64,000 nt of DNA, taken from Acidobacteria bacterium RIFCSPLOWO2_12_FULL_66_21 (GTDB lineage: Bacteria; Acidobacteriota; Vicinamibacteria; Vicinamibacterales; 2-12-FULL-66-21). The stretch covers positions 11,939-75,938 of the forward strand of contig MELC01000088.1 of the NCBI GenBank assembly GCA_001767455.1. Reading direction: 5' to 3'. Each line of letters starts with the position of its first letter. Positions within the stretch are counted from its first letter, which is position 1. The position numbers and the translations under genes were made by a program. The notes below the pieces were generated by a model. That model did not search any database. It was not told where the DNA came from and saw only the letters and a list, made by a program, of their open reading frames with translations. Positions 13,901 to 48,378 of this stretch are shown here, piece after piece.

Positions 13901-14014
13901 GTTGGCGAATTGGTGAATTGGTGAATTGGTGAATTTGGCGGCACCGTGTCACGTGCCATCCGAACGGACGACGACGGCAGGGTGTGCACAATTCACGACT
14001 CGCAATTCGCAATT
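13901..14014. repeat. TGGTGAAT octamer array plus CAATTCG heptamer array
   Basis: Tandem units visible at both ends of the interval. Confidence 0.75.
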
Positions 14015-18505: not shown

Positions 18506-18609
18506 AATTGGTGAGTTGGTGAGTTGGTGAATTGACGACGGTGGCCTGTATCAACCACGGAGCTAATTCACTAATCCACTAATTCACCAATCCACGAATT
18601 CGCCGATTT
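18506..18609. repeat. Inverted TGGTGAAT/ATTCACCA octamer arrays with conserved core
   Basis: Core also present at 23016-23106. Confidence 0.8.
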
Positions 18610-23114: not shown

Positions 23115-23143
23115 TTGACTTAGAGGGTGCCGGCTCCTAGCTT
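23115..23143 (+). promoter_or_regulatory. Probable sigma-70 promoter of the DUF151 gene
   Basis: TTGACT-N17-TAGCTT. Confidence 0.55.
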
Positions 23144-23165
23144 AGATGTGCGACCTGGGGACCGT

Positions 23166-23651
23166 ATGCAGATTGAAATGACGATCAAGGGCCTGATGGT
23201 GGATCCCATCACCAACATGCCCATCATCATCCTGCGGGACCGCGACGGGCAGCGCGTTCTGCCGATCTGGGTGGGCGTGTTCGAAGCGAACGCCATCGCG
23301 CTGCAGATCGAGAACGTGACCACGCCGCGCCCGATGACGCACGACCTGCTCCGGAACGTCATCCACGACCTCAAGGCGGACATCCAGAAGATCGTCGTCT
23401 CCGACCTCAAGGAGAACACGTTCTACGCGCTGATCTACCTGCTGGTGAACGGCGAGCCGGTGGCCGTGGACGCGCGGCCGAGCGACGCGATCGCGCTGGC
23501 GCTGCGGGCGCAGGCGCCGATCTTCGTGGAGGACGCCGTCATCGATCACGCCAAGACGGTCGACTTCGCGCCCGAGAAGGGGGACGCCGAGCGGCTCCAG
23601 AAGTGGCTCGAGAGCCTCGACCCCGACGACATGGGGAAATACAAGATGTAG
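23166..23651 (+). CDS. Bifunctional nuclease family protein (DUF151)
   Basis: LPIWVGVFEA, RPMTHDLL, DARPSDAIALALR. Confidence 0.93.
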   Translation: MQIEMTIKGLMVDPITNMPIIILRDRDGQRVLPIWVGVFEANAIALQIENVTTPRPMTHDLLRNVIHDLKADIQKIVVSDLKENTFYALIYLLVNGEPVAVDARPSDAIALALRAQAPIFVEDAVIDHAKTVDFAPEKGDAERLQKWLESLDPDDMGKYKM

Positions 23652-23790
23652 TTGGTGAGTTGGTGAATTCGTGAGTTGGTGAATTCGTGAGGGGTGAATT
23701 GTCATCCTGCCGTGGCCGTCCGGAGGGGTGGTTCGAGCCGCGTTCACAATTCACCAACCCACCAATTCACCAACCCACCAATTCACCAAC
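23651..23790. repeat. Inverted octamer arrays (TGGTGAAT ... ATTCACCA)
   Basis: About 6 units on the left and 5 on the right around a different spacer. Confidence 0.8.
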
Positions 23791-23814
23791 TACGCTACAA
23801 TCCCTCCCGTCCCG

Positions 23815-24570
23815 ATGATTGTCGCGATCGCAAACCAGAAAGGCGGCGTGGGCAAGACCACGACCGCCATCAACCTCGCCGCAGCCCTGTCCCTCCGAGG
23901 TAAGCGCACGCTGCTCGTCGATCTCGATCCCCAGGCGAACAGCACGATGTCGTACCTGGACGTCCGGACCGTGACCCGCAGCGTCTACGACGCCATCGCC
24001 GACGCCGACTGCGGCTTCGCGGACATCATCCAGCCTTCGTCGCAGCCGAACCTGTGGGTGGCCCCCTCGCGCATCGCGCTGGCCAAGCTCGAAGGGAAGC
24101 TGGTGGGCGAGCTCGACGCGCACTTCCGGCTGAAGGATCGTCTCGAGCCTATCCGGGCCGACTACCCGCACATCGTCATCGACTGCCCGCCGACGCTCGG
24201 ACTGTTGACCGTCAACGCGCTGGTCGCCGCAACGCACCTGCTCATCCCGATCCAATCGTCGTACTTCGCGCTCGAAGGGACCGACGACCTGCTCGAGACG
24301 ATCGAGAAGGTACGGGCCCGCGCGAATCCGACGCTGCGGATCCTGGGGGTCGTGATCACCATGCACGACAAGCGCACGTCGCTCGCGCGCGACATCCGAG
24401 CGCAGATCGACAAGGTGTTCGGCAGCAAGGTGTTCCGGACGGTCATCACGAAGAGCGTCCGGCTCGAGGAAAGCCCGGCCTACAAGGAGTCGATTTTCTC
24501 CTTCGCGCCGGAATCGAGCGGGGCGGCGGAGTATTACCGGCTTTGCGAAGAAGTCATGGATCGGGCCTGA
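23815..24570 (+). CDS. parA: ParA/Soj-family ATPase
   Basis: Deviant Walker A NQKGGVGKTTT, DLDPQAN, IDCPPTLG. Confidence 0.93.
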   Translation: MIVAIANQKGGVGKTTTAINLAAALSLRGKRTLLVDLDPQANSTMSYLDVRTVTRSVYDAIADADCGFADIIQPSSQPNLWVAPSRIALAKLEGKLVGELDAHFRLKDRLEPIRADYPHIVIDCPPTLGLLTVNALVAATHLLIPIQSSYFALEGTDDLLETIEKVRARANPTLRILGVVITMHDKRTSLARDIRAQIDKVFGSKVFRTVITKSVRLEESPAYKESIFSFAPESSGAAEYYRLCEEVMDRA

Positions 24571-24584
24571 TGCTGCGAACTCTG

Positions 24585-24789
24585 ACGGCGAACGAGCGAG
24601 AGCGAGGGAGTCACGCGATCGGAGCGAGCCGACGAAGCGGCGAGCGAGAGCGCGTGTGGGGGAGTCTGAGGGGCGCGAGCCCTGAACGGCGAACGAGCGA
24701 GAGCGAGAGAGCCACGCGATCGGAGCGAGCCGACGAAGCGGCGAGCGAGAGCGCGTGTGGGGGAGTCTGAGGGGCGCGAGCCCCTCAGA
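24585..24789 (+). repeat. Tandem duplication of a ~98-bp REP-like unit (period 101 bp) ending in a GNRA hairpin
   Basis: Copies start at 24585 and 24686 with about 2 mismatches; copy 2 ends in TCTGAGGGGC-GCGA-GCCCCTCAGA. Confidence 0.9.
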
Positions 24790-24809
24790 TGATGAGGAGG
24801 TCATGGACC

Positions 24810-25628
24810 GTGCCTAAGAGAGGACTGCCGGAATCGGTGCGGATGCGGCACGACGAGCATTACGTCGAGGCCCTCGCAAGCTCCGCGGGAGCTCCGATTG
24901 GCCGCGTGGTGCCGATCGACCAGGTGGATCCGAATCCAAACCAGCCGCGCCAGGTGATGGGGGATCTGTCGGAGCTGATGGCCTCGATCGCGGAGAAGGG
25001 GATCATCGAGCCCATCATCGTGCGGCAGCGCGGACGGCGACTCCAGATCGTCGCGGGTGAGCGCCGGTACCAGGCCGCCGTACAGGTTGGCCTGCGGGAG
25101 ATCCCGATCGTGATCCGCGAGGTGGACGACGACGAGATCATCGAGATTGCGCTCATCGAGAACATCCAGCGCAAGGATCTGACGGCGTTCGAGGAGGCGG
25201 AGGCGCTCCAGGCGCTGGCGACGCGGTGCTCGTACACGCACGAAGACATGGCGCGGCGGCTGGGAAAGTCGCGGACGGCGATTACCGAGTCACTGTCGCT
25301 GAATGGAATGCCGGACGAAGTCAAAAACCTCTGTCGGCTGGCCGACATTCATTCTAAGTCTCTGCTACTACAGATAGTTAGGCAGGGCCACCCCCAGAAA
25401 ATGGTGGCGCTCCTCGAGAAGATCTCGCGCGACGGCGGCGCTACGCGCGAAGCCGTCCGGAAAGAGACCGCGAAGCCCAAGCCGGGGCGGCCGAAGGCCT
25501 ACGTCTTCAGCTACAAGGCACCCACCAAGGCGTTCAAGCTGCAGCTCCGGTTCACCAAGTCGCGCGTCGATCGCGACGAGGTGATCGAAGCGTTGCAGGC
25601 GATCATCCGCGAGCTGAAAGAGAAGTAG
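24810..25628 (+). CDS. parB: ParB/Spo0J-family CTP-binding partition protein
   Basis: PNPNQPR, IVAGERRYQA arginine patch, ALIENIQRKDL, helix-turn-helix THEDMARRLGKSRT; GTG start with GAGGAGG upstream. Confidence 0.92.
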   Translation: MPKRGLPESVRMRHDEHYVEALASSAGAPIGRVVPIDQVDPNPNQPRQVMGDLSELMASIAEKGIIEPIIVRQRGRRLQIVAGERRYQAAVQVGLREIPIVIREVDDDEIIEIALIENIQRKDLTAFEEAEALQALATRCSYTHEDMARRLGKSRTAITESLSLNGMPDEVKNLCRLADIHSKSLLLQIVRQGHPQKMVALLEKISRDGGATREAVRKETAKPKPGRPKAYVFSYKAPTKAFKLQLRFTKSRVDRDEVIEALQAIIRELKEK

Positions 25629-25803
25629 CTTTTCAGCTACCAGCTTCCTGTTACCAGCTTCCAGTTACCAGCTTCCAGCCGCCAGTTTCCAGTTTCCAGT
25701 TTCCGGCTGCGGACAGGCGCTCACAGGTTCGTCGGCCGCGAGGCAGCGTGGCAGTGTGGATTCTCTCTGGCTCGAAGCTGGGAGTTGGAAACTGGGAGCC
25801 GGG
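25627..25803. repeat. Inverted CCAGCTT/CTGGAAA heptamer arrays between parB and dif
   Basis: About 10 units on the left and 4 on the right. Confidence 0.8.
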
Positions 25804-25822
25804 ACTGTCAACCAGCTTGTTT

Positions 25823-25850
25823 AGTTAACATAACACGTATTATCAGACCC
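25823..25850 (-). other. dif site (XerC/XerD recombination site)
   Basis: Minus strand GGGTCTGATAA-TACGTG-TTATGTTAACT (11-6-11); the XerD arm differs by one base from E. coli TTATGTTAAAT; intergenic and AT-rich. Confidence 0.88.
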
Positions 25851-25975
25851 ATCAACTATGCCCAGTGAAACACTCCTGTTGATGGTTTGCGGACGCCCGG
25901 TTAAGGTCGATGCCCTAGGGATCGCCCGCCGACCGCCCGCCCTCTCGATCGTGATATCGTTCGAATCCAGCCCCC

Positions 25976-28399
25976 ATGCTCCGCACGATTGACCGTTACG
26001 TGATCCGCGAGGTCATCCCCCCGTTCCTGCTCGCCCTCCTCGTATTCACGTTCCTCCTGGTCCTCCCGCCGGTGATGCAGTACCTCGAGAACCTGCTGTC
26101 CAAGGGAGTCTCCTGGCCGATCGCCGCGCGCATCGTCTTGACGTTGATCCCGCAGGGCCTCGGGCTCACGATCCCGATGGCGCTGCTCACGGGCATCCTG
26201 ATCGGGCTGGGGCGGCTCTCCACCGATCGCGAGACGATGGCGCTGCTGGCCTGCGGCGTCAGCCCCTACCGTTTGCTCCGGCCCGTCATGCTCCTGGCCG
26301 TGCTGGCGACGCTCGCGACGGGCTACGTGATGATCCAGGCCATCCCGGACGCCAACCAGACCTTCCGCGAAATCACCCTCGACGTGGTGAGCAAGCGCGT
26401 CGAAACGGACATCCGGCCGCGCGTCTTCTTCGAGGACTTCCCGGGCTTCGTGCTCTACGCCCGCGACGCCGCGCCGGGCGGCGGCTGGCGGGACGTGCTG
26501 GTCGCCGACACCAGAAAGCCCGGGGATACGAGGGTGTTCCTGGCGGCGCGCGGCCGTCTGATCATGGACCGCGAGCGGAGGGTCGTGGACCTCGTCCTGG
26601 CCGACGGCACCCAGTATTCGACGACGAAGCTTGGAGAGACCGACCGGGTCCGGTTCCTCGACGTTTTCCACATCGCGCTGGACGCCGACACGGTTTTCGG
26701 GCGCATGGACCTGCCGCGGGGGGTCACGGAAAAGACCATCGCGCAGCTTCGCGAGACCGTCACGGAGAAGGACCGGGCGAACCAGGCCAGCCGGGACGTG
26801 GTCCGCACGGAGGTCATCTCGCCGCACCCCGAGATCATGGCGATCCAGCAGAAGTTCTCGATCCCGGCGGCCTGCCTGATCTTCGCCGTCATCGGGCTCG
26901 CCCTCGGGCTGACGGTCGCGCGCGACAGCAAGCTGTCCGGCTTCGTCATCGGCATCGGGGTGATCTTCGCCTACTACGTCACCATGTTCCTGACCGACGC
27001 GGCCGTGAAGGGCTACTACACGACGCCGGAGTCCGTGATCGGGGCCTTCCGCTTCGCGAAGCTGGCGCGGTGGATTCCCGACATCGTCCTCGGCGCGTTC
27101 GGCGTGGTCGCGCTGGTCTGGCGGGCGCGGTATGCCGAACGAAACCTGCTGCCGTCTTCCGTGCGGTTCCCGGCGGGCTGGTGGCACCGGCCGGCGGCTC
27201 CCCCGCCACCCGGCCGGGGTCTGACCCCCGACGCGCAGGATCAGGGTCGGCTTGGGGTCAGACCCCGAATGCCGGGGCGGAAGGTCGTGGTCGTCGTGCG
27301 GGTCCCGCGCGTGCGGATCCCGGGACCGGGCATACTGGACCGCTACATCAGCCGCCTCTACGTCCGTGTGGTCGGCCTCTCGTTCCTCGCGCTGCTCGGC
27401 CTCTTCTACATTGCCTCGTTCATCGACCGCTCGGAGAAGCTCTTCAAGGGGCAGGCGACGACGCGGATGCTGCTGGAGTTCCTGGCGTACTCGACGCCGC
27501 AGTTCGTGTATTGGGTGATTCCGATCGCGGCGCTCCTGAGCGTGCTCGTCACCTTCGGCGTGCTCTCGCGAACGAGCGAGCTGACCGTGATGAAAGCGTG
27601 CGGGGTGAGTCTCTACCGGATTGCCGTTCCTGTCGTGGTGCTGTCACTCGTCGGGAGCGCGGTGCTGTTCGGCCTCGAGCAGGAGACGCTCGCGCGGGCG
27701 AACCGGCGCGCCGGCGCGCTCGACGACACGATCCGCGGCCGCCCGCCGAAGACGCTCAATCCGCTGAACCGCCGGTGGGTGATCGGCCGCGACCTCAGCA
27801 TCTACCATTACACGTACTTCGATCCGCGGCACAAGACGCTGTCGGCGCTGTCCATCTACCGTCTCGCCCCCGGGGCCTGGCGACTCGAGTCGCAGACCTA
27901 CGCCGCGACGGCCCGCTACCAGGACGGGAACTGGACCGCGGTCGGCGGATGGGCGCAGGATCTTTCCGGCACGACACCAACGTGGCGTCCTTTCGACCGC
28001 CGGACGCTCCCGATTGAGTCACCGGAGTATTTCGCGACCGATCAGACCGACGCGGACGTGATGACCGTGGCGGAGCTCCGCAAGCACCTCGCCGAGCTGT
28101 CCGCGACAGGCGTGGATATCGTGTCCGTGGCGGTGGAGCTGCAGCAGAAGCTCGCCTTCCCGTTCGTCACACTGGTGATGACGCTGTTGGCCGTGCCCTT
28201 CGGCGTGAGCACGGGCCGGCGGGGCACGCTCTATGGCATCGGCCTCGGCGTAATCATCGCACTGTCGTACTGGCTGTTGAGTTCCGTCTTCGTCGCGATC
28301 GGCAAGGCAGAGCTGCTCTCCCCCGCGCTCGCCGCCTGGACCCCGAACATCATCGTCACGGGGTGCGCGGGGTACTTGTTTCTGACGGTGAAGACGTAG
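25976..28399 (+). CDS. Fused LptF-LptG LPS export permease
   Basis: Two YjgP/YjgQ-type halves (IDRYVIRE...RLSTDRE; ILDRYISR...LSRTSELTVMKACGVS) joined by a Pro-rich linker. Confidence 0.9.
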   Translation: MLRTIDRYVIREVIPPFLLALLVFTFLLVLPPVMQYLENLLSKGVSWPIAARIVLTLIPQGLGLTIPMALLTGILIGLGRLSTDRETMALLACGVSPYRLLRPVMLLAVLATLATGYVMIQAIPDANQTFREITLDVVSKRVETDIRPRVFFEDFPGFVLYARDAAPGGGWRDVLVADTRKPGDTRVFLAARGRLIMDRERRVVDLVLADGTQYSTTKLGETDRVRFLDVFHIALDADTVFGRMDLPRGVTEKTIAQLRETVTEKDRANQASRDVVRTEVISPHPEIMAIQQKFSIPAACLIFAVIGLALGLTVARDSKLSGFVIGIGVIFAYYVTMFLTDAAVKGYYTTPESVIGAFRFAKLARWIPDIVLGAFGVVALVWRARYAERNLLPSSVRFPAGWWHRPAAPPPPGRGLTPDAQDQGRLGVRPRMPGRKVVVVVRVPRVRIPGPGILDRYISRLYVRVVGLSFLALLGLFYIASFIDRSEKLFKGQATTRMLLEFLAYSTPQFVYWVIPIAALLSVLVTFGVLSRTSELTVMKACGVSLYRIAVPVVVLSLVGSAVLFGLEQETLARANRRAGALDDTIRGRPPKTLNPLNRRWVIGRDLSIYHYTYFDPRHKTLSALSIYRLAPGAWRLESQTYAATARYQDGNWTAVGGWAQDLSGTTPTWRPFDRRTLPIESPEYFATDQTDADVMTVAELRKHLAELSATGVDIVSVAVELQQKLAFPFVTLVMTLLAVPFGVSTGRRGTLYGIGLGVIIALSYWLLSSVFVAIGKAELLSPALAAWTPNIIVTGCAGYLFLTVKT

Positions 28400-28525
28400 C
28401 AGGCAGCTGGCTGCAGGCAGCCGGCAGTGAGTCGCGCTGTACAGCTAAGTAGATGGTCAGCGTGACAGTGTGATCCACTGCCTGCTGCCTGCTGCCAGCT
28501 AACTGCCCGCTGCCTGCTGCCTGCT
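28399..28525. repeat. Inverted GCAGGCA/TGCCTGC heptamer arrays between convergent genes
   Basis: Visible tandem units. Confidence 0.75.
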
Positions 28526-30200
28526 AACGCCCAAACGCGACGTTCATGACGGAGAACGACCCTGCGGCTCCCGGCAGCATGTTGGTCAAATCCACCACGA
28601 ATAGAAGTGACCCGGCAGTGGAGCTGTCGGGCATGGGGCCCGTCTGGCGGTCGGCGGCCAGCAGATCGGAGATGGGCACGGTGATGCGGCGGGTGTCATC
28701 GACGTAAACCGAATGGCCCCAGCGCCCGGACGGATAGCGGAGCTGAACGGACAGCCGCATAGGGCGCGAGGCATTGGCGTCGAGTTCGATCGAGTGGAAC
28801 GTTCCGGTGCGACCGCCGAGGTCCGTGACGAGCGCGGCGTACTGGCTCGCACGCTCGCCGGGCGCAAACTGAAATGACAGGGTGGCAGTTCCTGCCACCA
28901 CCGCCACGCGCGCCGTCGATCGCGGGTCCTTCTCAATCCGCCACAAAAGGGGGACAGGCACACTTCCAGGCTTGGGAAGGAGGACAGGCACACTTCCGGG
29001 GAAAGAAGTGTGCCTGTCCCCCTTTTCCGTCTGCAGAAAATAGATGGGGTTGCTGACCACCCAGGGTACGGGGGGGACTCCCGGCGCGTCGGGGACACGA
29101 ATCTCGATGCGGACTGCGCCGGTTGTCGGTCCCAGCGCGAGATCGCCGGAGGATGGCACCGCAATCTCGCTGCCGTTTCGGATGGCGACGATCCGGGCGC
29201 CCTCCGGCATTGCCGCATGGACTGAAACGGTAGTGGTTCTTCCTGCGGGCAGCACTGAGCCCATCGCGCCGTCCCGCCCGTCCGACGTGGCCCGGAAGTC
29301 GAGAACGGCCGGCGCGGCGATGCCGTCCATGGCGGTGAAGAACCGGCCGCCGGCGATCGCGTCGAGCAGCCGCTCCCCGTCTGGCCCGGCGTCACCGGTG
29401 AACGGCGCGTCGAGAATGGCGCGGAGGCTGAAAGACCGGAAGCTCGCCTCGTAGGCGGGAATCCCCGGAAGGCCTCCCCCGTCCTCCCGCCGCCCTCGCA
29501 TGCCGCCGTGCGCATCGTGTCCGGCAATCCCGACCACAGGGCGCCGCGAGGCCAGGCTGTCCCAACGCTTCAGCGCATCGACCGGCCGATCGAACATCGA
29601 GGCGAGCGCGGGTCCGGGCCGGACCAGGTAGTCGAACACGACCCGCGCGAGCCGTACCCGCCGTTCGTTGCGCCATTCGTTGTCGGCGTTCAGCCACTCG
29701 ACGCCGTCGACCGGCGCGCCCCAGTCCGTCCAGGCGAGCGACGGCTTCGGCGAATCGACGTGCGCGGCAATCCCGAACCCGCCGAACCGGCGCACGTCCT
29801 CGACGACGGCCGCCGGCTCGCCGCCGAGCGGATAGGGCGTCGCCGCCCGCAGGCCCAGCGCGACATAGTGGCCGCCGTTCGTGCTGATCTCGACGCCTTC
29901 GAGGCACAGCACGCCGTCGACATATTCGGGACGCGCCGGTGCGCGCGTGCCGTCGCCGTGGTCGGCCAGAACGATGAACCGAAGCCCCGCGCGCGCGGCC
30001 GCAGCCGCCACTTCCCTCTTGTCCTTCGCGCCGTCGGAGACCGTGGTGTGGATGTGATAGGCGCCGGCAACCGTACGCGCGGCGAGAGCGGGATCGCCCG
30101 TCACGAGCGTCCGCGGACGCGGTGGCAGCGTTGCCAGCAGGAAAAAAACAACGGCGGCTGCAAGAGCCGCCGTTGCGATGCCGAGACGAGACGTCGTTAC
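28524..30200 (-). CDS. PHP-like (CehA/McbA-type) metallohydrolase with probable N-terminal anchor; start codon uncertain
   Basis: [27 protein letters not shown] motifs; the frame extends past GTG 30104 through a hydrophobic segment up to the metK stop. Confidence 0.7.
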
Positions 30201-32200: not shown

Positions 32201-33079
32201 TTATTTGCGCGGGTGAAACCGGTCGTAGACGGCGCGCAGGCGCGCCTCGATCACGTGGGTGTAGATCTCGGTCGACGACAGATCCGCGTGGCCCAGCATC
32301 ACCTGGATCATCCGCAGATCGGCGCCGCGGTCGAGCAGGTGCGTGGCGAACGAATGCCGCAGCACGTGCGGGCTCAGCTCGCGCGAGATCCCCGCCTTGA
32401 TGCCGTACGCCTTCAGCAGCTTCCAGAAGCCGACGCGCGAGAGCGCGCCGCCGCGGGCGTTGACGAAGAGCCACGGCGAGCCGCGCTTGGTGACGAGCGT
32501 CGGCCGCGCCTCGGCGATGTACTGGCTCACCCACCGCGCCGCCTGGTGCCCGAGCGGCACCATCCGCTGCTTGTCGCCCTTGCCGATGCAGGTGAGGTGT
32601 CCCTCCTCGAGGTTCAGGTCGCCCGCTTTGAGCGCCAGCAGCTCCGACACGCGCAGGCCGGTCGCATAGAGGACTTCGATGAGCGCCTTGTCGCGCAGGC
32701 CAATCGGCGTCGAGGTGTCGGGCACTGCGAGCAGCCGGTCGACGTCGGCGAGGTCCAGGAACTTCGGCAGCGCCGGCCATGCGCGTGGCGGGCGCAGGTC
32801 GTCCGCGGGACTCTGATCCTGTTTCCGCTCCACGGCGAGGAACTTGTAGAAGCCGCGCACGCAGGCGACCGCGCGGGCGACGGACCGCGGCGCGAGACCG
32901 GACGCCATCAGGTGACGGACGAAGGCGTCCAGATCGCGGCGATCCAGCGCGTCGACCGCCCGCCCGCGCGTCTCCGCGAAGGCGGAGAGCGCCGCCAGAT
33001 CGCGCGCGTAGCTCTCGACCGTGTTCGGCGACATTCGCCGCACGTCACGCAGATAGGTCAGGTAGGTGTCGATCACCAA
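32201..33079 (-). CDS. xerD: Site-specific tyrosine recombinase XerD
   Basis: NTVESY, LPKFL, LYATGLRVSEL, GKGDKQRMVP, SPHVLRHSFATHLL, LGHADLSSTEIYTHV, FHPR. Confidence 0.92.
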   Translation of the reverse strand: MVIDTYLTYLRDVRRMSPNTVESYARDLAALSAFAETRGRAVDALDRRDLDAFVRHLMASGLAPRSVARAVACVRGFYKFLAVERKQDQSPADDLRPPRAWPALPKFLDLADVDRLLAVPDTSTPIGLRDKALIEVLYATGLRVSELLALKAGDLNLEEGHLTCIGKGDKQRMVPLGHQAARWVSQYIAEARPTLVTKRGSPWLFVNARGGALSRVGFWKLLKAYGIKAGISRELSPHVLRHSFATHLLDRGADLRMIQVMLGHADLSSTEIYTHVIEARLRAVYDRFHPRK

Positions 33080-44426: not shown

Positions 44427-46211
44427 ATGACCCTGACAACTCTCGACTGGGTGATCATCGCCGCCTACTTCGTGCTCTCCCTGGCGATCGGCCTGTTCTA
44501 TTACCGCCGCGCTGGAGAAAGTACTGGCGAGTACTTCGTGGCCGGGCGCAACCTGCCGTGGTGGCTGGCGGGCACGTCGATGGTGGCGACGACCTTCGCG
44601 GCCGACACGCCGCTGGCGGTGACCGAGATGGTCGCCAGGAACGGCGTGGCGGGTAACTGGCTCTGGTGGGCGATGCTGCCGAGCGGCATGCTCACGGTGT
44701 TCTTCTTTGCGCGGCTCTGGCGCCGCGCGGAGGTGATGACCGACGTCGAGTTCGTCGAGCTGCGGTACTCGGGCAGGCCCGCGGCATTCCTTCGGGCGTT
44801 CCGCTCGCTGTACCTCGGCCTCGCGATCAATTTGATCATCATGGGCTGGGTCAACCTCGGGATGGCGAAGATCCTGAGCGGCACGCTCGGCTTGCAGAAA
44901 TGGCAGGCGCTCGGCTTCTGCCTCGGGATCACCTTCCTGTATTCGATTCTTTCCGGCCTCTGGGGCGTCGTCGTCACCGACGCCGTGCAGTTCGTCATCG
45001 CGATGGTGGGCTCGTTCGCGCTCGCGTATTTCGCCGTGCATGCGGTCGGCGGTCTCGACGCGCTGAAGGCGGGGATGGCCGCGGCCGTTCCTGCCGGCGG
45101 CACGGAGCCGTTCGGGCCGGCGGCGCTCTCTTTGTGGCCTGACGGATCGGCCGCGTGGATGATCCCCTTCGTGACGCTCGTGACCTACCTCGGCGTGAAC
45201 TGGTGGGCGTCCTGGTACCCGGGAGCCGAGCCCGGCGGCGGCGGCTACATCGCGCAGCGCATCTTCTCCGCGAAAAACGAAAAGCACGGCGTTCTGGCGA
45301 CGCTCTGGTTCAACGTCGCGCACTACGCGCTGCGGCCCTGGCCCTGGATCCTCGTCGCCCTGTCGTCGCTGGTGCTCTACAAAGGCGGCGTGATCAATCC
45401 CGCCACCGGCGTGGTCGATCCCGCGCTCGGGTACGTGCAGGTGATGAACGATTACCTGCCCGTGGGGTTCCGCGGGCTGCTCCTCGCGTCGTTCGCCGCG
45501 GCGTACATGAGCACGATCGCGACGCAGATGAACTGGGGCTCCAGCTACATCGTGAACGATTTCTACCGGCGGTTCCTCCGCAAGGGAGAGACGGAGCGCC
45601 ACTACGTGATGGCGTCGCGGGTCGCTACGTTCCTGACGATGCTCCTGTCGATTGTCGTGACCTACTTCATGAACCGCATCACGGGCGGATGGGAGCTGGT
45701 GCTGACGCTCGGCGCGGGCACGGGCCTCGTCTACATCCTGCGCTGGTACTGGTGGCGGATCAACGCGTGGTCCGAGATTTCCGCGATGACCGCGGCGCTC
45801 GTCGTCTCGCTCGGTCTGTTGTGGAGCGGTGTCTTCGAGGGCGGGACGCCGCGCGGGTTCGCGCTCACGATTCTGACGACGGTGGGCATCACGACCGCGG
45901 TGTGGCTGGCCGCGACGTTTGCCACGTCGCCGGAGCCCGAGGCCAAACTGGTCTCGTTCTACCGCCGCGTGCGTCCGGCAGGCCCGGGATGGACGGCCGT
46001 CGCCGCGCGCGCGGGAGGGCCGGCCTCGGCGCCAGTCGATCGCCTCGGACCCGGATTCATCAACTGGGTGCTCGGCATCGCCGTGGTGTACTCGACGCTC
46101 TTTGCGATCGGGGATCTGCTGTTCGGCGCGCTGGCTCGTGGAGCCGGCCTCGCCGCCCTCGCGCTCGTCGCCGCTCTCGCGCTCGCGCGACGGTTGGAGG
46201 GAGGGTTCTAG
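44427..46211 (+). CDS. Sodium:solute symporter family protein
   Basis: Multi-TM; YFVAGRNLPWW, SMVATTFAADTPL, GLWGVVVTD, AAYMST. Confidence 0.9.
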   Translation: MTLTTLDWVIIAAYFVLSLAIGLFYYRRAGESTGEYFVAGRNLPWWLAGTSMVATTFAADTPLAVTEMVARNGVAGNWLWWAMLPSGMLTVFFFARLWRRAEVMTDVEFVELRYSGRPAAFLRAFRSLYLGLAINLIIMGWVNLGMAKILSGTLGLQKWQALGFCLGITFLYSILSGLWGVVVTDAVQFVIAMVGSFALAYFAVHAVGGLDALKAGMAAAVPAGGTEPFGPAALSLWPDGSAAWMIPFVTLVTYLGVNWWASWYPGAEPGGGGYIAQRIFSAKNEKHGVLATLWFNVAHYALRPWPWILVALSSLVLYKGGVINPATGVVDPALGYVQVMNDYLPVGFRGLLLASFAAAYMSTIATQMNWGSSYIVNDFYRRFLRKGETERHYVMASRVATFLTMLLSIVVTYFMNRITGGWELVLTLGAGTGLVYILRWYWWRINAWSEISAMTAALVVSLGLLWSGVFEGGTPRGFALTILTTVGITTAVWLAATFATSPEPEAKLVSFYRRVRPAGPGWTAVAARAGGPASAPVDRLGPGFINWVLGIAVVYSTLFAIGDLLFGALARGAGLAALALVAALALARRLEGGF

Positions 46212-46250
46212 GGTTCTAGGGTTCCAGGGTTCCAGGGTTCTTGGGGTTCT
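46203..46250 (+). repeat. GGGTTCYA octamer array overlapping the symporter stop
   Basis: GGGTTCTA x2, GGGTTCCA x2, then degenerate units. Confidence 0.85.
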
Positions 46251-46307: not shown

Positions 46308-47072
46308 CTATCCCCTACCGCCCCGGCGGCCGCCCGGCGCTCCGCGGAACGGTCCCGGGTCGGCTCCGCCCGGCCTGAATCCGCCCGGTCCGCGTCCGCG
46401 GCCGTCCGGCCCGCCGCGCCCGTCGCCGCGGCCACGTCCGTCCGGCCTGCCGATCCCGCCGGGTCCGGCCCTGCCACCCGGCCCGCCGACGCCGCCACCG
46501 GGCCGATTGCTGACCGCGATCAGGAACTGCCACTCGTTGTAATGCGTGCGTCCCTTGTACACGCGGATCGAGGCTTCCTTGCTCTTGCTCTGGACCCCCA
46601 TGAACGGGCCGCCCAGCCCCGCGCCCAGCGAGAATCCCCCGGAGCCGCCGGACCCTTGGGGTGTGCCGGACGGGGTCGGGATGCGTCCGGTGGCGCCGGC
46701 GCTCCCCTGACCGCGTCCGGGGATCTGCCCGCCGGGATTCGGCCCAAGGGGAGTCCCTCCTCCGACGGCCGACGCGGGAATCAGCGTGAATTCCCCATCC
46801 TCCGTCATCGGGTCCTTGTACTTCTTGCGGAGAAACCGCTGCGTCACCAGCACGTCGATGTTGGTCGGAAAGGAACCCGTTTTTCGCTGATACAGGCCGA
46901 TGGCCCGCGCGTACTGCTCGCCGCGGAACACCAGCTCGGCTTCCTTCTCGCGCTGCGCCTGCTGGCGCCACACGGGAAGGGCGACGCTCATCAGCACCGC
47001 CATCACTCCCAGCGCCACCAACAGCGCAGCCATCGCGTATCCGCGCTGGCTGCCTTGACCCTCTAAATACAT
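46308..47072 (-). CDS. Minor pseudopilin-like protein lacking Glu+5, with Gly/Arg-rich C-terminal tail
   Basis: QRG|YAMAALLVALGVMAV prepilin-like site, REKEAEL, RFLRKKYKDPMT; ATG at 47072. Confidence 0.8.
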   Translation of the reverse strand: MYLEGQGSQRGYAMAALLVALGVMAVLMSVALPVWRQQAQREKEAELVFRGEQYARAIGLYQRKTGSFPTNIDVLVTQRFLRKKYKDPMTEDGEFTLIPASAVGGGTPLGPNPGGQIPGRGQGSAGATGRIPTPSGTPQGSGGSGGFSLGAGLGGPFMGVQSKSKEASIRVYKGRTHYNEWQFLIAVSNRPGGGVGGPGGRAGPGGIGRPDGRGRGDGRGGPDGRGRGPGGFRPGGADPGPFRGAPGGRRGGRG

Positions 47073-47097
47073 GAGAGTATTATCCTTAGCGTCACTT

Positions 47098-48378
47098 ATG
47101 GTAACACACATCGCCCGTCGCCCAAGGCCCCGCGCCGTTGCGATTCCCGTCGCCGCGCTCTCGTTCATGACGGTCCTTTCCGCCGTGGCCGGGTGCGACA
47201 AAGTGCCGCTCGTCGCGCCGACCGGGAGTGTGATCACTTTGTTTGCCTCGGCGCCGAACGTGGCGGCCAACGGCCAGATTGAAATCGTGGCCACGGTAAT
47301 CGAGCATGGGACCACGGCGGCGACTGGCACCGGAACGCCGCCAGGTGGAACCGGCACCACATCGACGTCGACGGCCGGTTCCGGCACGCCGGTGCAGAAC
47401 GGCACGCTGGTGTCGTTCACCTCGACGCTCGGCACGATCGAGCCGCGCGAGGCGCGCACGAACAACGGTGAAGTGCGCGTCCGGTTCATCGCCGGCGGAC
47501 AGAGCGGCTCGGCGACCATCACGGCGTACTCGGGCGGCGCGTCAGGCACGCTGAAAGACCTCCTGGTCGGGACCGCCGCGGCCAAACGCATTACCGTCAC
47601 CGCCACGCCGCAGAACCTCGGCTCGTCGGGCGGCACCGCCGACATCGCGGCGCAGGTGCAGGACGACGCCGGCACCGGACTGGCCGGCGTGCCCGTGACC
47701 TTCACGACCTCGGCGGGGACGGTGACCCCGGCGACCGCCACAACGGATTCCGCAGGCGTCGCGCACGCCACGCTGACGTCCACAACGAAGGCGGAGGTGA
47801 CGGCGACGGCCGGGGCGCAGTCGGGCAAAGTCACGGTGGACGTGGCGGCCCGATCGGGTCTGGCCGTCAGCGCGTCGCCCACCTCGACGAGCGCCGGCGT
47901 GCCGGTGGCATTCACCATTACGACTAATGACGCCGCGATCCTGACAAACGGACGGATTAATTACGGCGACGGTCAGAGCCAGTCGCTTGGAACGCTCAAC
48001 AAGACGCGGAGCGATCAGCACGTCTACTCCGCGGCCGGCACCTATACGGTCACGGTCACCGCCACGGATGCCAGTGGCAACACCGACGGCGCCGGCACGA
48101 CCGTCATCGTCAGCGCACTGGGCGTCTCGATCACCACCACTGGCTCGCAGATTCAGAACAGCCCCATCACGTTCACGGCGACCTTCGACGCGGGCGCCAA
48201 TCCGTCCGTGTCCCGATACGTGTGGACGTTCGTCGAGGACGCCGCGACGCAGGAGACCACGGGCAGGTCGACGGTCCACTCCTTTGCGACGAAAGGCAAC
48301 AAGACCATCCGGGTCGATGTCTACGGCATCAACGGACAGATCATCGGAACGGCCACGACGCAGGTCTCCATCAACTGA
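47098..48378 (+). CDS. Lipoprotein with Ig-like (Big-1/invasin) and PKD domains
   Basis: Lipobox VAGC; GTLVSFTS, GVPVTFTT...TTDSAGVA, YGDG...HVYSAAGTYTVTV. Confidence 0.8.
   Translation: MVTHIARRPRPRAVAIPVAALSFMTVLSAVAGCDKVPLVAPTGSVITLFASAPNVAANGQIEIVATVIEHGTTAATGTGTPPGGTGTTSTSTAGSGTPVQNGTLVSFTSTLGTIEPREARTNNGEVRVRFIAGGQSGSATITAYSGGASGTLKDLLVGTAAAKRITVTATPQNLGSSGGTADIAAQVQDDAGTGLAGVPVTFTTSAGTVTPATATTDSAGVAHATLTSTTKAEVTATAGAQSGKVTVDVAARSGLAVSASPTSTSAGVPVAFTITTNDAAILTNGRINYGDGQSQSLGTLNKTRSDQHVYSAAGTYTVTVTATDASGNTDGAGTTVIVSALGVSITTTGSQIQNSPITFTATFDAGANPSVSRYVWTFVEDAATQETTGRSTVHSFATKGNKTIRVDVYGINGQIIGTATTQVSIN

Follow-up and report, generated by a model that had tools for sequence, protein, structure and literature searches.

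The described systems closest to the locus presented here are the chromosomal ParABS systems of bacteria, namely Soj/Spo0J-parS of Bacillus subtilis and Thermus thermophilus and ParAB-parS of Caulobacter crescentus and Myxococcus xanthus; in excerpts of two published accounts, parS is described only as origin-proximal (PMC7333895, PMC7022226). We have analyzed a stretch of 64,000 nucleotides, hereafter called the window, from the genome of Acidobacteria bacterium RIFCSPLOWO2_12_FULL_66_21 (contig MELC01000088.1), in which a pair of partition genes, parA2 and parB2, lies beside the recombination site dif. The locus, parAB2, has the same protein families and the same domain order as the chromosomal ParABS and, like them, a candidate centromere near or inside parB2, a 16-bp palindrome that we call parS2. 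It differs from them in lying at the replication terminus beside dif and not near oriC, in coexisting with a canonical system linked to the origin, and in sequence features of ParB2 that are considered below. We put at about 0.62 the probability that the locus constitutes a complete second ParABS, orthogonal to the canonical one and devoted to the replication terminus, a reading that rests on sequence comparisons.

Other systems share some of these features. ParAB2-parS2 of Vibrio cholerae chromosome 2, as well as the Par systems of secondary replicons, likewise constitutes a second orthogonal ParABS with its own centromere in one cell. Those Par systems, however, act on a separate replicon, near the origin of which they are located, whereas here both systems lie on one chromosome at opposite replication poles, as mapped in single-contig relatives (the host genome, of 6,475,179 bp, is in 91 contigs). 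In MatP/matS of Escherichia coli and ZapT of Caulobacter, a protein binds specific sequences that are found exclusively in the terminus region around dif, which is comparable to the binding predicted for ParB2, and the clusters of five and seven palindromes found in two genomes (G048 and G146) are similar to a small matS set. The protein families are nevertheless unrelated, most genomes studied here have one site as against about 20, and the present system has an ATPase as motor partner. Noc, which acts with the Noc-binding sites (NBS) of Firmicutes, is likewise a ParB paralogue that arose by duplication and has a new palindromic specificity, but it is linked to the origin, works without a dedicated ParA and has many binding sites that avoid the terminus. 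Full-text searches of the literature retrieved no description of a natural ParABS linked to the terminus.

Two Partition Systems in One Genome

The host genome contains exactly two genes with a ParB_N domain. Besides parB2, there is parB1, situated on contig C42 at 9 kb from dnaA. It belongs to the classical block of gyrA-gyrB-dnaN-dnaA followed by yidC-jag-mnmE-mnmG-rsmG-parA1-parB1, in which a canonical-type parS palindrome, TGTTCCACGTGGAACA, is found directly upstream of parA1. Within two mismatches, canonical parS occurs in the genome only on contigs C42 and C24, and there is none on the contig of the window. The sequence-only reading had inferred a second ParAB, and the origin-linked pair that this implied is indeed present beside mnmG/rsmG and dnaA; hence parA2-parB2 is a second partition system in addition to the canonical parAB1. 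ParA2 is 46% identical to ParA1, and ParB2 is 36% identical to ParB1 over the N-terminal domain and the helix-turn-helix (HTH) motif, with C-termini that give no convincing alignment. In a separate observation, seven of the genomes compared carry a third open reading frame (ORF) with ParB_N, of about 400-550 residues, which matches only residues 8-120 of ParB2 and is absent from the host genome.

The gene parA2 (positions 23815-24570, plus strand) encodes a partition ATPase of ParA/Soj type with 251 residues, which matches Pfam AAA_31 (2e-55) and CbiA (6e-28) and has the deviant Walker A motif KGGVGKT, conforming to the pattern KGGxxK[ST]. The gene parB2 (24810-25628, plus strand) encodes a ParB of chromosomal type, 272 residues long from a GTG start, with matches to Pfam ParB_N (8e-28) and HTH_ParB (1e-13) and a score of 145 bits on TIGR00180, the cut-off of which is 58. 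Both ORFs are complete and possess their Pfam domains, in agreement with the description of the pair as intact. The stop at 25628 that had been assigned to parB also holds, but its start at 24789 probably does not: the start is most likely GTG 24810, because six of 24 orthologues carry an in-frame stop upstream of this position, which lies 9 nt after an AGGAGG sequence (24795-24800).

ParB2 has the layout of an N-terminal CTPase domain, an HTH, a linker and a predicted C-terminal domain of beta-beta-alpha type. Its sequence profile retrieves Spo0J from the PDB (1vz0, 4e-50), together with ParB of M. xanthus, ParB of C. crescentus and Noc (range 4e-50 to 1e-35). Comparably, the best Foldseek matches of its AlphaFold2 model (mean predicted local distance difference test, pLDDT, of 77.6, from an alignment of 19 sequences) are ParB and Noc proteins, with a target-normalized template modeling score of 0.78 for Caulobacter ParB. 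Profile and fold searches thus group ParB2 with chromosomal Spo0J/ParB and Noc, and not with the plasmid proteins KorB, RepB or SopB. All 19 ParB2 orthologues aligned have the motifs G-E-R-R-Y, E-N-x-x-R-x-D-L and Q-P-R without variation, and ParB2 keeps an N-terminal peptide bearing Lys/Arg residues. After the flexible linker, the model shows a C-terminal unit formed by two strands (230-236 and 243-249) and a helix (255-271), with pLDDT of 72-89. As far as can be judged from their sequences, the products of parA2 and parB2 are true partition proteins.

Conservation of the Locus and Its Position Opposite dnaA

The 28-bp dif site had been read at 25823-25850 on the minus strand, and the match to the 28-mer then quoted is exact. 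Its XerC-type arm occupies 25840-25850, the 6-bp center 25834-25839 and the XerD-type arm, which points toward parB2, 25823-25833; the gap from the parB2 stop, previously given as about 195 bp, measures 194 nt. The dif core, ATAA-N6-TTATGTTAA, is found once in the window when up to two mismatches are allowed (0.00 expected) and once in the whole genome when up to one is allowed. There is no second dif-like 28-mer within seven mismatches in the whole genome, where the XerD-type arm also occurs once, so that dif is unique and no better candidate exists elsewhere. Across 24 orthologous loci, each arm of dif differs at 0-3 positions, and the 6-bp center varies freely, as expected for a Xer site. 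Regarding the recombination machinery, the gene for the tyrosine recombinase XerD (32201-33079, minus strand) scores 345 bits on TIGR02225 against a cut-off of 329.6, has the Pfam Phage_integrase domain plus a SAM-like N-domain, and lies 6.35 kb from dif, very close to the 6.4 kb noted before. FtsK is encoded in the host genome, and further Xer-like recombinases on contigs C14, C67 and C64 all score under the XerC cut-off.

The locus is common among relatives, which count as non-independent samples in all the tallies reported here. Of the 30 nearest genomes, 24 have a full-length ParB2 (66-89% identity); in one more the gene is frameshifted, and in another it is a fragment located where the contig ends. 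The remaining four, without ParB2, are 57-81% complete. ParB2 is present at E <= 1e-40 in 146 of 151 genomes of the class (one unpublished genome included), and full-length ParB2 in 91 of 151 genomes of the phylum Acidobacteriota, each at least 90% complete (two unpublished genomes included). The gene order miaB-BFN-parA2-parB2-dif-lptFG is kept across the order-level loci whose flanks reach that far, with recN also upstream in the block, and outside this order all 10 loci of the class that were compared share recN-miaB-BFN-parA2-parB2. A dif-like site follows parB2 within 1.5 kb at its 3' side, on the opposite strand and with the XerD arm nearest to the gene, in 24 of 26 order-level loci, as it does 35-1444 bp past the parB2 stop in 77 of 80 further loci of Vicinamibacterales; all five misses correspond to loci that end within about 750 bp of parB2. 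The distance from parB2 to dif increases to 3.3-4.5 kb in family f18, belonging to another order of the class, in three genomes of which the dif pattern has no match. Outside the class, a dif-like site was found in one of the five genomes tested (G254), and the adjacency holds there. The parAB-dif synteny that the sequence-only reading had suggested following across Acidobacteriota is thus conserved in the order, with looser spacing class-wide and in G254.

The evidence for a terminus in the host genome itself is local, because this genome is fragmented. The contig of the window measures 80.9 kb and its weak cumulative GC skew has the maximum about 10 kb from dif; a strand bias had been counted (19 of 25 genes on the plus strand to the left of dif, 20 of 32 on the minus strand to its right), and the values for Pfam-supported ORFs are close (18 of 24 and 14 of 24, respectively). 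In this genome parAB2 and dnaA lie on different contigs. The decisive evidence comes from the position opposite dnaA in relatives assembled as single contigs. We mapped dnaA, parB2 and dif in 23 such genomes of the class and in one of another class, and the shorter arc between dnaA and parB2 spans 0.43-0.50 of the chromosome in 24 of 24 cases (chromosome sizes were exact for 13 genomes and rounded for 11). In the relative G029, the cumulative skew reaches its maximum about 80 kb from dif. The location at the terminus, which had been proposed from the window, is therefore sustained by the unique dif, the skew maximum near it and the position of parB2 in all these relatives: parAB2, the palindrome and dif travel together across Acidobacteriota, opposite dnaA.

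A Candidate Centromere Associated with parB2

It was a run of rare, AT-rich codons in parB2 that led to the palindrome parS2, TGTCGGC-TG-GCCGACA (25332-25347), which lies inside the parB2 codons for C-R-L-A-D-I, 475 bp from dif. The palindrome is unique in the host genome, and within one mismatch it is observed once in the window against 0.03 expected. Its outer TGT...ACA is common to the canonical-type site near parA1, but the inner bases differ. The same codons contain the palindrome in 80 of 80 loci of Vicinamibacterales, which have no other copy within 6 kb on either side save for six with a second copy between parB2 and dif, mostly a partial duplicate of the parB2 segment. In ten orthologues, most of them from family f2, neither the palindrome nor the rare codons remain in the gene. 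Eight of these have a perfect copy upstream of parA2, at a distance of 125-200 bp, and a promoter of the form TTGACN-N17-TAGAAT follows this copy by about 100 nt. The palindrome is found 12-75 bp past the parB2 stop in six of nine single-contig genomes of family f18, and the genomes G073 and G058 have a second copy 0.2-0.5 kb beyond dif. In other classes, four of five genomes have their sole exact copy inside parB2 or close downstream, with none in the controls.

A survey of 40 genomes produced 55 exact TGTCGGC-NN-GCCGACA sites against one for the control with reversed pattern, and 36 of these genomes have at least one site. Of these sites, 38 are no more than 4 kb from parB2, and a further 11 share its contig at distances of up to 300 kb. 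In genus g35, sets of palindromes surround dif: G048 has copies at -53, -22, 0, +50 and +76 kb, and G146 has seven, spanning G048:C1 875554-1005017 and G146:C3 3788794-4093075 (130-300 kb; loci L174-L183). These dispersed copies are located in coding frames, some of unrelated genes, as well as in intergenic DNA, and are not accompanied by T-tracts. Four of them look orthologous between G048 and G146, with reverse-complementary flanks seen for one pair. In all cases the arms of the palindrome never vary, while the central two bases do. Since the palindrome stays with the operon or with dif across coding and non-coding contexts, its behavior is the one expected of a centromere recognized by a protein and not of a terminator hairpin, and the sequence TGTCGGC-NN-GCCGACA is the probable centromere of ParAB2.

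On the side that faces dif, the operon-proximal palindrome is always followed by an AT-rich flank, which in parB2 consists of rare codons (25348-25385, plus strand) and includes the inverted pentamers CTAAG (25354-25358) and GTTAG (25377-25381), separated by N18. The flank is present also where the palindrome is intergenic, and the dispersed copies in G048 and G146 lack it; the one-sidedness of the flank derives from a crude motif scoring that undercounts Lys AAA codons and was used for sidedness alone. The G+C content at third codon positions (GC3) averages 0.57 in the flank versus 0.80 for the gene in 46 orthologues. We considered the rare-codon run as the centromere and rejected it, for the conserved dip in GC3 is the flank and the palindrome alone recurs independently. 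The parS of plasmid P1, a composite with a site for integration host factor (IHF), likewise joins a ParB site to a second AT-rich element at fixed spacing, which offers an analogy only: on visual inspection, the CTAAG-N18-GTTAG flank resembles an IHF-type consensus in just a few of the intergenic copies, the dispersed ones have no such flank, and an IHF-like reading is not claimed.

The genome G045 has a different arrangement. Three copies of a one-mismatch variant, TGTCGGACGGCCGACA, lie inside its recN and miaB genes (locus L147, G045:C1 264000-277000), its parB2 has no copy of the palindrome, and its dif, 44 kb away, shares the strand of parB2, an arrangement suggestive of an inversion.

Evaluation of Alternative Explanations

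The association just described raises a question: Could parS2 and its vicinity to dif be explained without any role at the terminus? The alternative that survives best, which we regard as unlikely but far from negligible, is that parAB2 is an autoregulated operon and the palindrome solely its operator, so that the adjacency to dif would reflect the frozen gene order recN-miaB-BFN-parAB2-dif-lptFG, the system possibly serving another cargo or process. Such an operator would accommodate the fact that most genomes have just one site, either in the operon or at most 1 kb from it, its relocation upstream of a promoter, the strong synteny of the whole block and the lineages in which dif is 7-45 kb away. 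It would not readily account for the extra copies just past dif in G073 and G058, nor for those that straddle dif over 130-300 kb in G048 (five) and G146 (seven), also in unrelated genes and with four that look shared. Moreover, the partner ParA is retained with 76-92% identity among its orthologues across the order, and in 24 of 24 genomes the locus has stayed opposite dnaA although other regions were rearranged.

A low probability is attributed also to the possibility that ParB2 is a division regulator at the terminus, similar to Noc or to the partner of MipZ, in which case ParB2 or ParA2 would inform the divisome of the place and time at which the last DNA leaves mid-cell, by promoting or blocking the assembly of the Z-ring. 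Regulators of division bound to the terminus exist elsewhere, as exemplified by MatP-ZapB and ZapT. MatP itself is not encoded in the host genome (PF06303 has no match there, and a control search found MatP in E. coli), and Noc structures are among the best matches of ParB2. Yet ParB2 scores 154 bits on the Noc model TIGR04285, far under the cut-off of 315 bits, and ParB1 scores higher, 245 bits. The Lys/Arg-bearing N-terminal peptide and the cognate ParA fit a cargo driven by ParA, and nothing points to a membrane-targeting helix, for which no dedicated test was made.

Partition genes beside dif are known from islands that exploit Xer recombination, such as the gonococcal genetic island, and ParB2 resembles plasmid proteins in being a distinct paralogue with its own centromere. 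In principle, therefore, parAB2 could be what is left of a plasmid, or of a mobile element exploiting Xer, whose integration at dif took place in an early acidobacterium, and it would have no function for the host. We deem this improbable. Integrative mobile elements exploiting Xer (IMEX) are bracketed by two dif-like sites, while the host genome, having a single dif-like site within seven mismatches, has no second one flanking the locus. There are no mobile, replication or transfer genes in the flanks, both proteins are strongly conserved across the phylum, and the best matches of ParB2 are the chromosomal ParB/Spo0J proteins and not plasmid RepB, KorB or SopB. An ancient capture followed by domestication is conceivable, but concerns the origin of the module and not its present function.

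Finally, the reading of the palindrome as an RNA hairpin, either terminator or attenuator, can practically be dismissed. A search for terminators does report the palindrome on each strand, with 6 pairs, a loop of 4 nt and a tail rich in T, and in several lineages the palindrome directly follows a stop codon. Its arms, however, are invariant and only the central 2 nt vary, without compensatory changes in the stem, it has typically one or two copies per genome, at the parAB2 locus, and the dispersed copies of G048 and G146 lie in coding frames lacking T-tracts.

The proposal of a ParABS dedicated to the terminus needs to be qualified in turn, with respect to both its proteins and its sites. A complete arginine patch in ParB has the sequence GERRxRA. 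ParB1 conforms to it with GERRWRA, whereas ParB2 has GERRYQA. All 19 aligned orthologues share its G, E, R, R, Y and A, and in 17 of them Gln stands in place of the third Arg (the position is not invariant); the clamp behavior of ParB2 may therefore differ. As regards the C-terminal dimerization domain of ParB proteins, Pfam ParB_C has no match in ParB2, though it matches ParB1. Using this ParB2 as the query, 60 of the 151 genomes of Acidobacteriota have no match, for instance none of the 11 of family f41 has one, and the tallies of relatives overstate the support because of the kinship among the genomes. In other orders of the class, 7-14 kb separate parB2 from dif in family f21, and the separation amounts to about 44 kb in the genomes G045 and G114, so that direct contact of a ParB2 complex with dif would not be universal. 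As for the sites, six of the 55 lie far off or on other contigs and four of the 40 genomes have no exact copy, while most genomes have one parS2, inside or beside the operon, which fits a plain operator equally well. The GC skew is weak in this lineage. In the 400 kb around dif of G029, we found no polar octamer for the orientation of FtsK beyond the bias of the coding strand, and the FtsK-orienting octamer of E. coli (KOPS) shows no polarity, with 12 and 9 copies on the two strands to the left of dif and 7 and 10 to its right. Binding of ParB2 to parS2, its spreading, its interaction with ParA2 and a phenotype at the terminus are what we infer from comparison with known systems.

Proposed Mechanism

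How a ParABS at the terminus could work is suggested by the established behavior of ParB as a CTP-dependent clamp and of ParA in gradients, from which the following steps are derived. Dimers of ParB2 would be loaded at parS2 in the form of CTP-dependent clamps that slide along the neighboring DNA; given that canonical ParB spreads over several kilobases, the DNA covered by ParB2 would include dif. ParA2 bound to ATP and to the nucleoid, stimulated by the Lys/Arg N-terminal peptide of ParB2, would position a single cargo as plasmid Par systems do: one copy of the ParB2-parS2 complex would be held at mid-nucleoid and two copies would be pushed apart. In this way dif would be kept at the future division plane until replication ends, after which the system would help to separate the sister termini and present dif to FtsK/XerCD. 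The location of parS2, within the operon or adjacent to it, makes it probable that ParB2 autoregulates parA2-parB2 as well.

Taken as a whole, the scheme would place two orthogonal ParABS machines on one chromosome. ParAB1-parS would serve the origin, while ParAB2-parS2 would form over dif a domain of CTP clamps, kept at mid-nucleoid by a gradient of ParA2 and split after termination, dif being thereby handed over to FtsK/XerCD. The latter system would then amount to a motor-driven analogue of MatP/matS, evolved from a duplicated partition system whose centromere was re-specified. We advance this complete scheme tentatively, as somewhat less likely than not.

Neighboring Genes and Repeats

The region of the window between 23.1 and 26.0 kb has all its genes on the plus strand: the BFN gene, parA2, parB2 and, from 25976, the gene for a fused lptF/lptG. 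The first (23127-23651, plus strand) encodes a bifunctional-nuclease domain (PF02577, 1.9e-41) and is the immediate upstream neighbor of parA2 in all 26 order-level loci; possibly, it belongs to the partition module. On the other side, the segment 25976-28399 consists of a single ORF of 807 residues with two LptF_LptG stretches, apparently a fused lptF-lptG permease, which adjoins dif and is kept there in most loci of the order. Pfam matches bear out the presence of recN and ssb, as well as miaB and a tolQ-tolR-tolA-tolB-pal-ybgF cluster, to the left of parAB2, and recN, ssb and tol-pal had indeed been listed as nearby genes; a type IV pilus/type II secretion cluster and genes for sugar utilization lie to the right of dif. 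No phage, plasmid or transposon genes were seen among the Pfam-annotated ORFs of the flanks, and the impression of a core-genome setting is thereby reinforced, with core genes on both sides in conserved order.

Farther from the locus, the segment 7039-13529 contains rpoN-hpf-hprK-rapZ-EIIA(Man)-ptsI after lptC/A-lptB, the usual neighborhood of sigma-54 and of the nitrogen phosphotransferase system (PTS), here near the terminus. Two long ORFs on the minus strand, 28524-30104 and 46308-47918, have no Pfam match, and the former failed the GC3 coding filter and may not be a gene.

Repeats are frequent in the intergenic DNA around the two partition genes. An octamer-repeat hairpin precedes parA2 (23648-23793; 126 blastn-short matches on 27 contigs), with similar arrays at 13902-13940, 18563-18601 and 46202-46250, and a heptamer-repeat hairpin separates parB2 from dif (25631-25802; 108 blastn-short matches on 29 contigs). 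Such intergenic arrays of 7-8 nt repeats, which pair with complementary arrays into long hairpins, form a genome-wide family. Two tandem copies of a GC-rich 101-bp repeat, related to others on contigs C20, C5, C87 and C38, are inserted between parA2 and parB2 (24585-24783); the distance from the parA2 start to parB2 is 748-751 nt in most relatives, in which the genes overlap by 4 bp, versus 995 nt here. We rejected all these repeats as partition devices: the octamer, heptamer and 101-bp families are dispersed over 27, 29 and 5 contigs, respectively, and consequently neither the hairpins nor the insertion is part of the system. No promoter of sigma-70 type was found in 23550-26050.

Biological Implications

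The positioning and separation of the terminus are largely unexplained outside enterobacteria, and in textbooks ParABS systems are machines of the origin. The predicted 16-bp site makes the idea of a terminus-dedicated ParABS directly testable, and might furnish an orthogonal ParB-parS pair for the labeling of DNA loci. If the idea is correct, parAB2 would represent a natural example of a ParB with changed DNA specificity, and a natural case of two chromosomal centromeres that do not cross-react within one cell. In evolutionary terms, a partition mechanism would have been put to use also where the replication cycle ends, with a phylum-wide ParABS system that marks dif.

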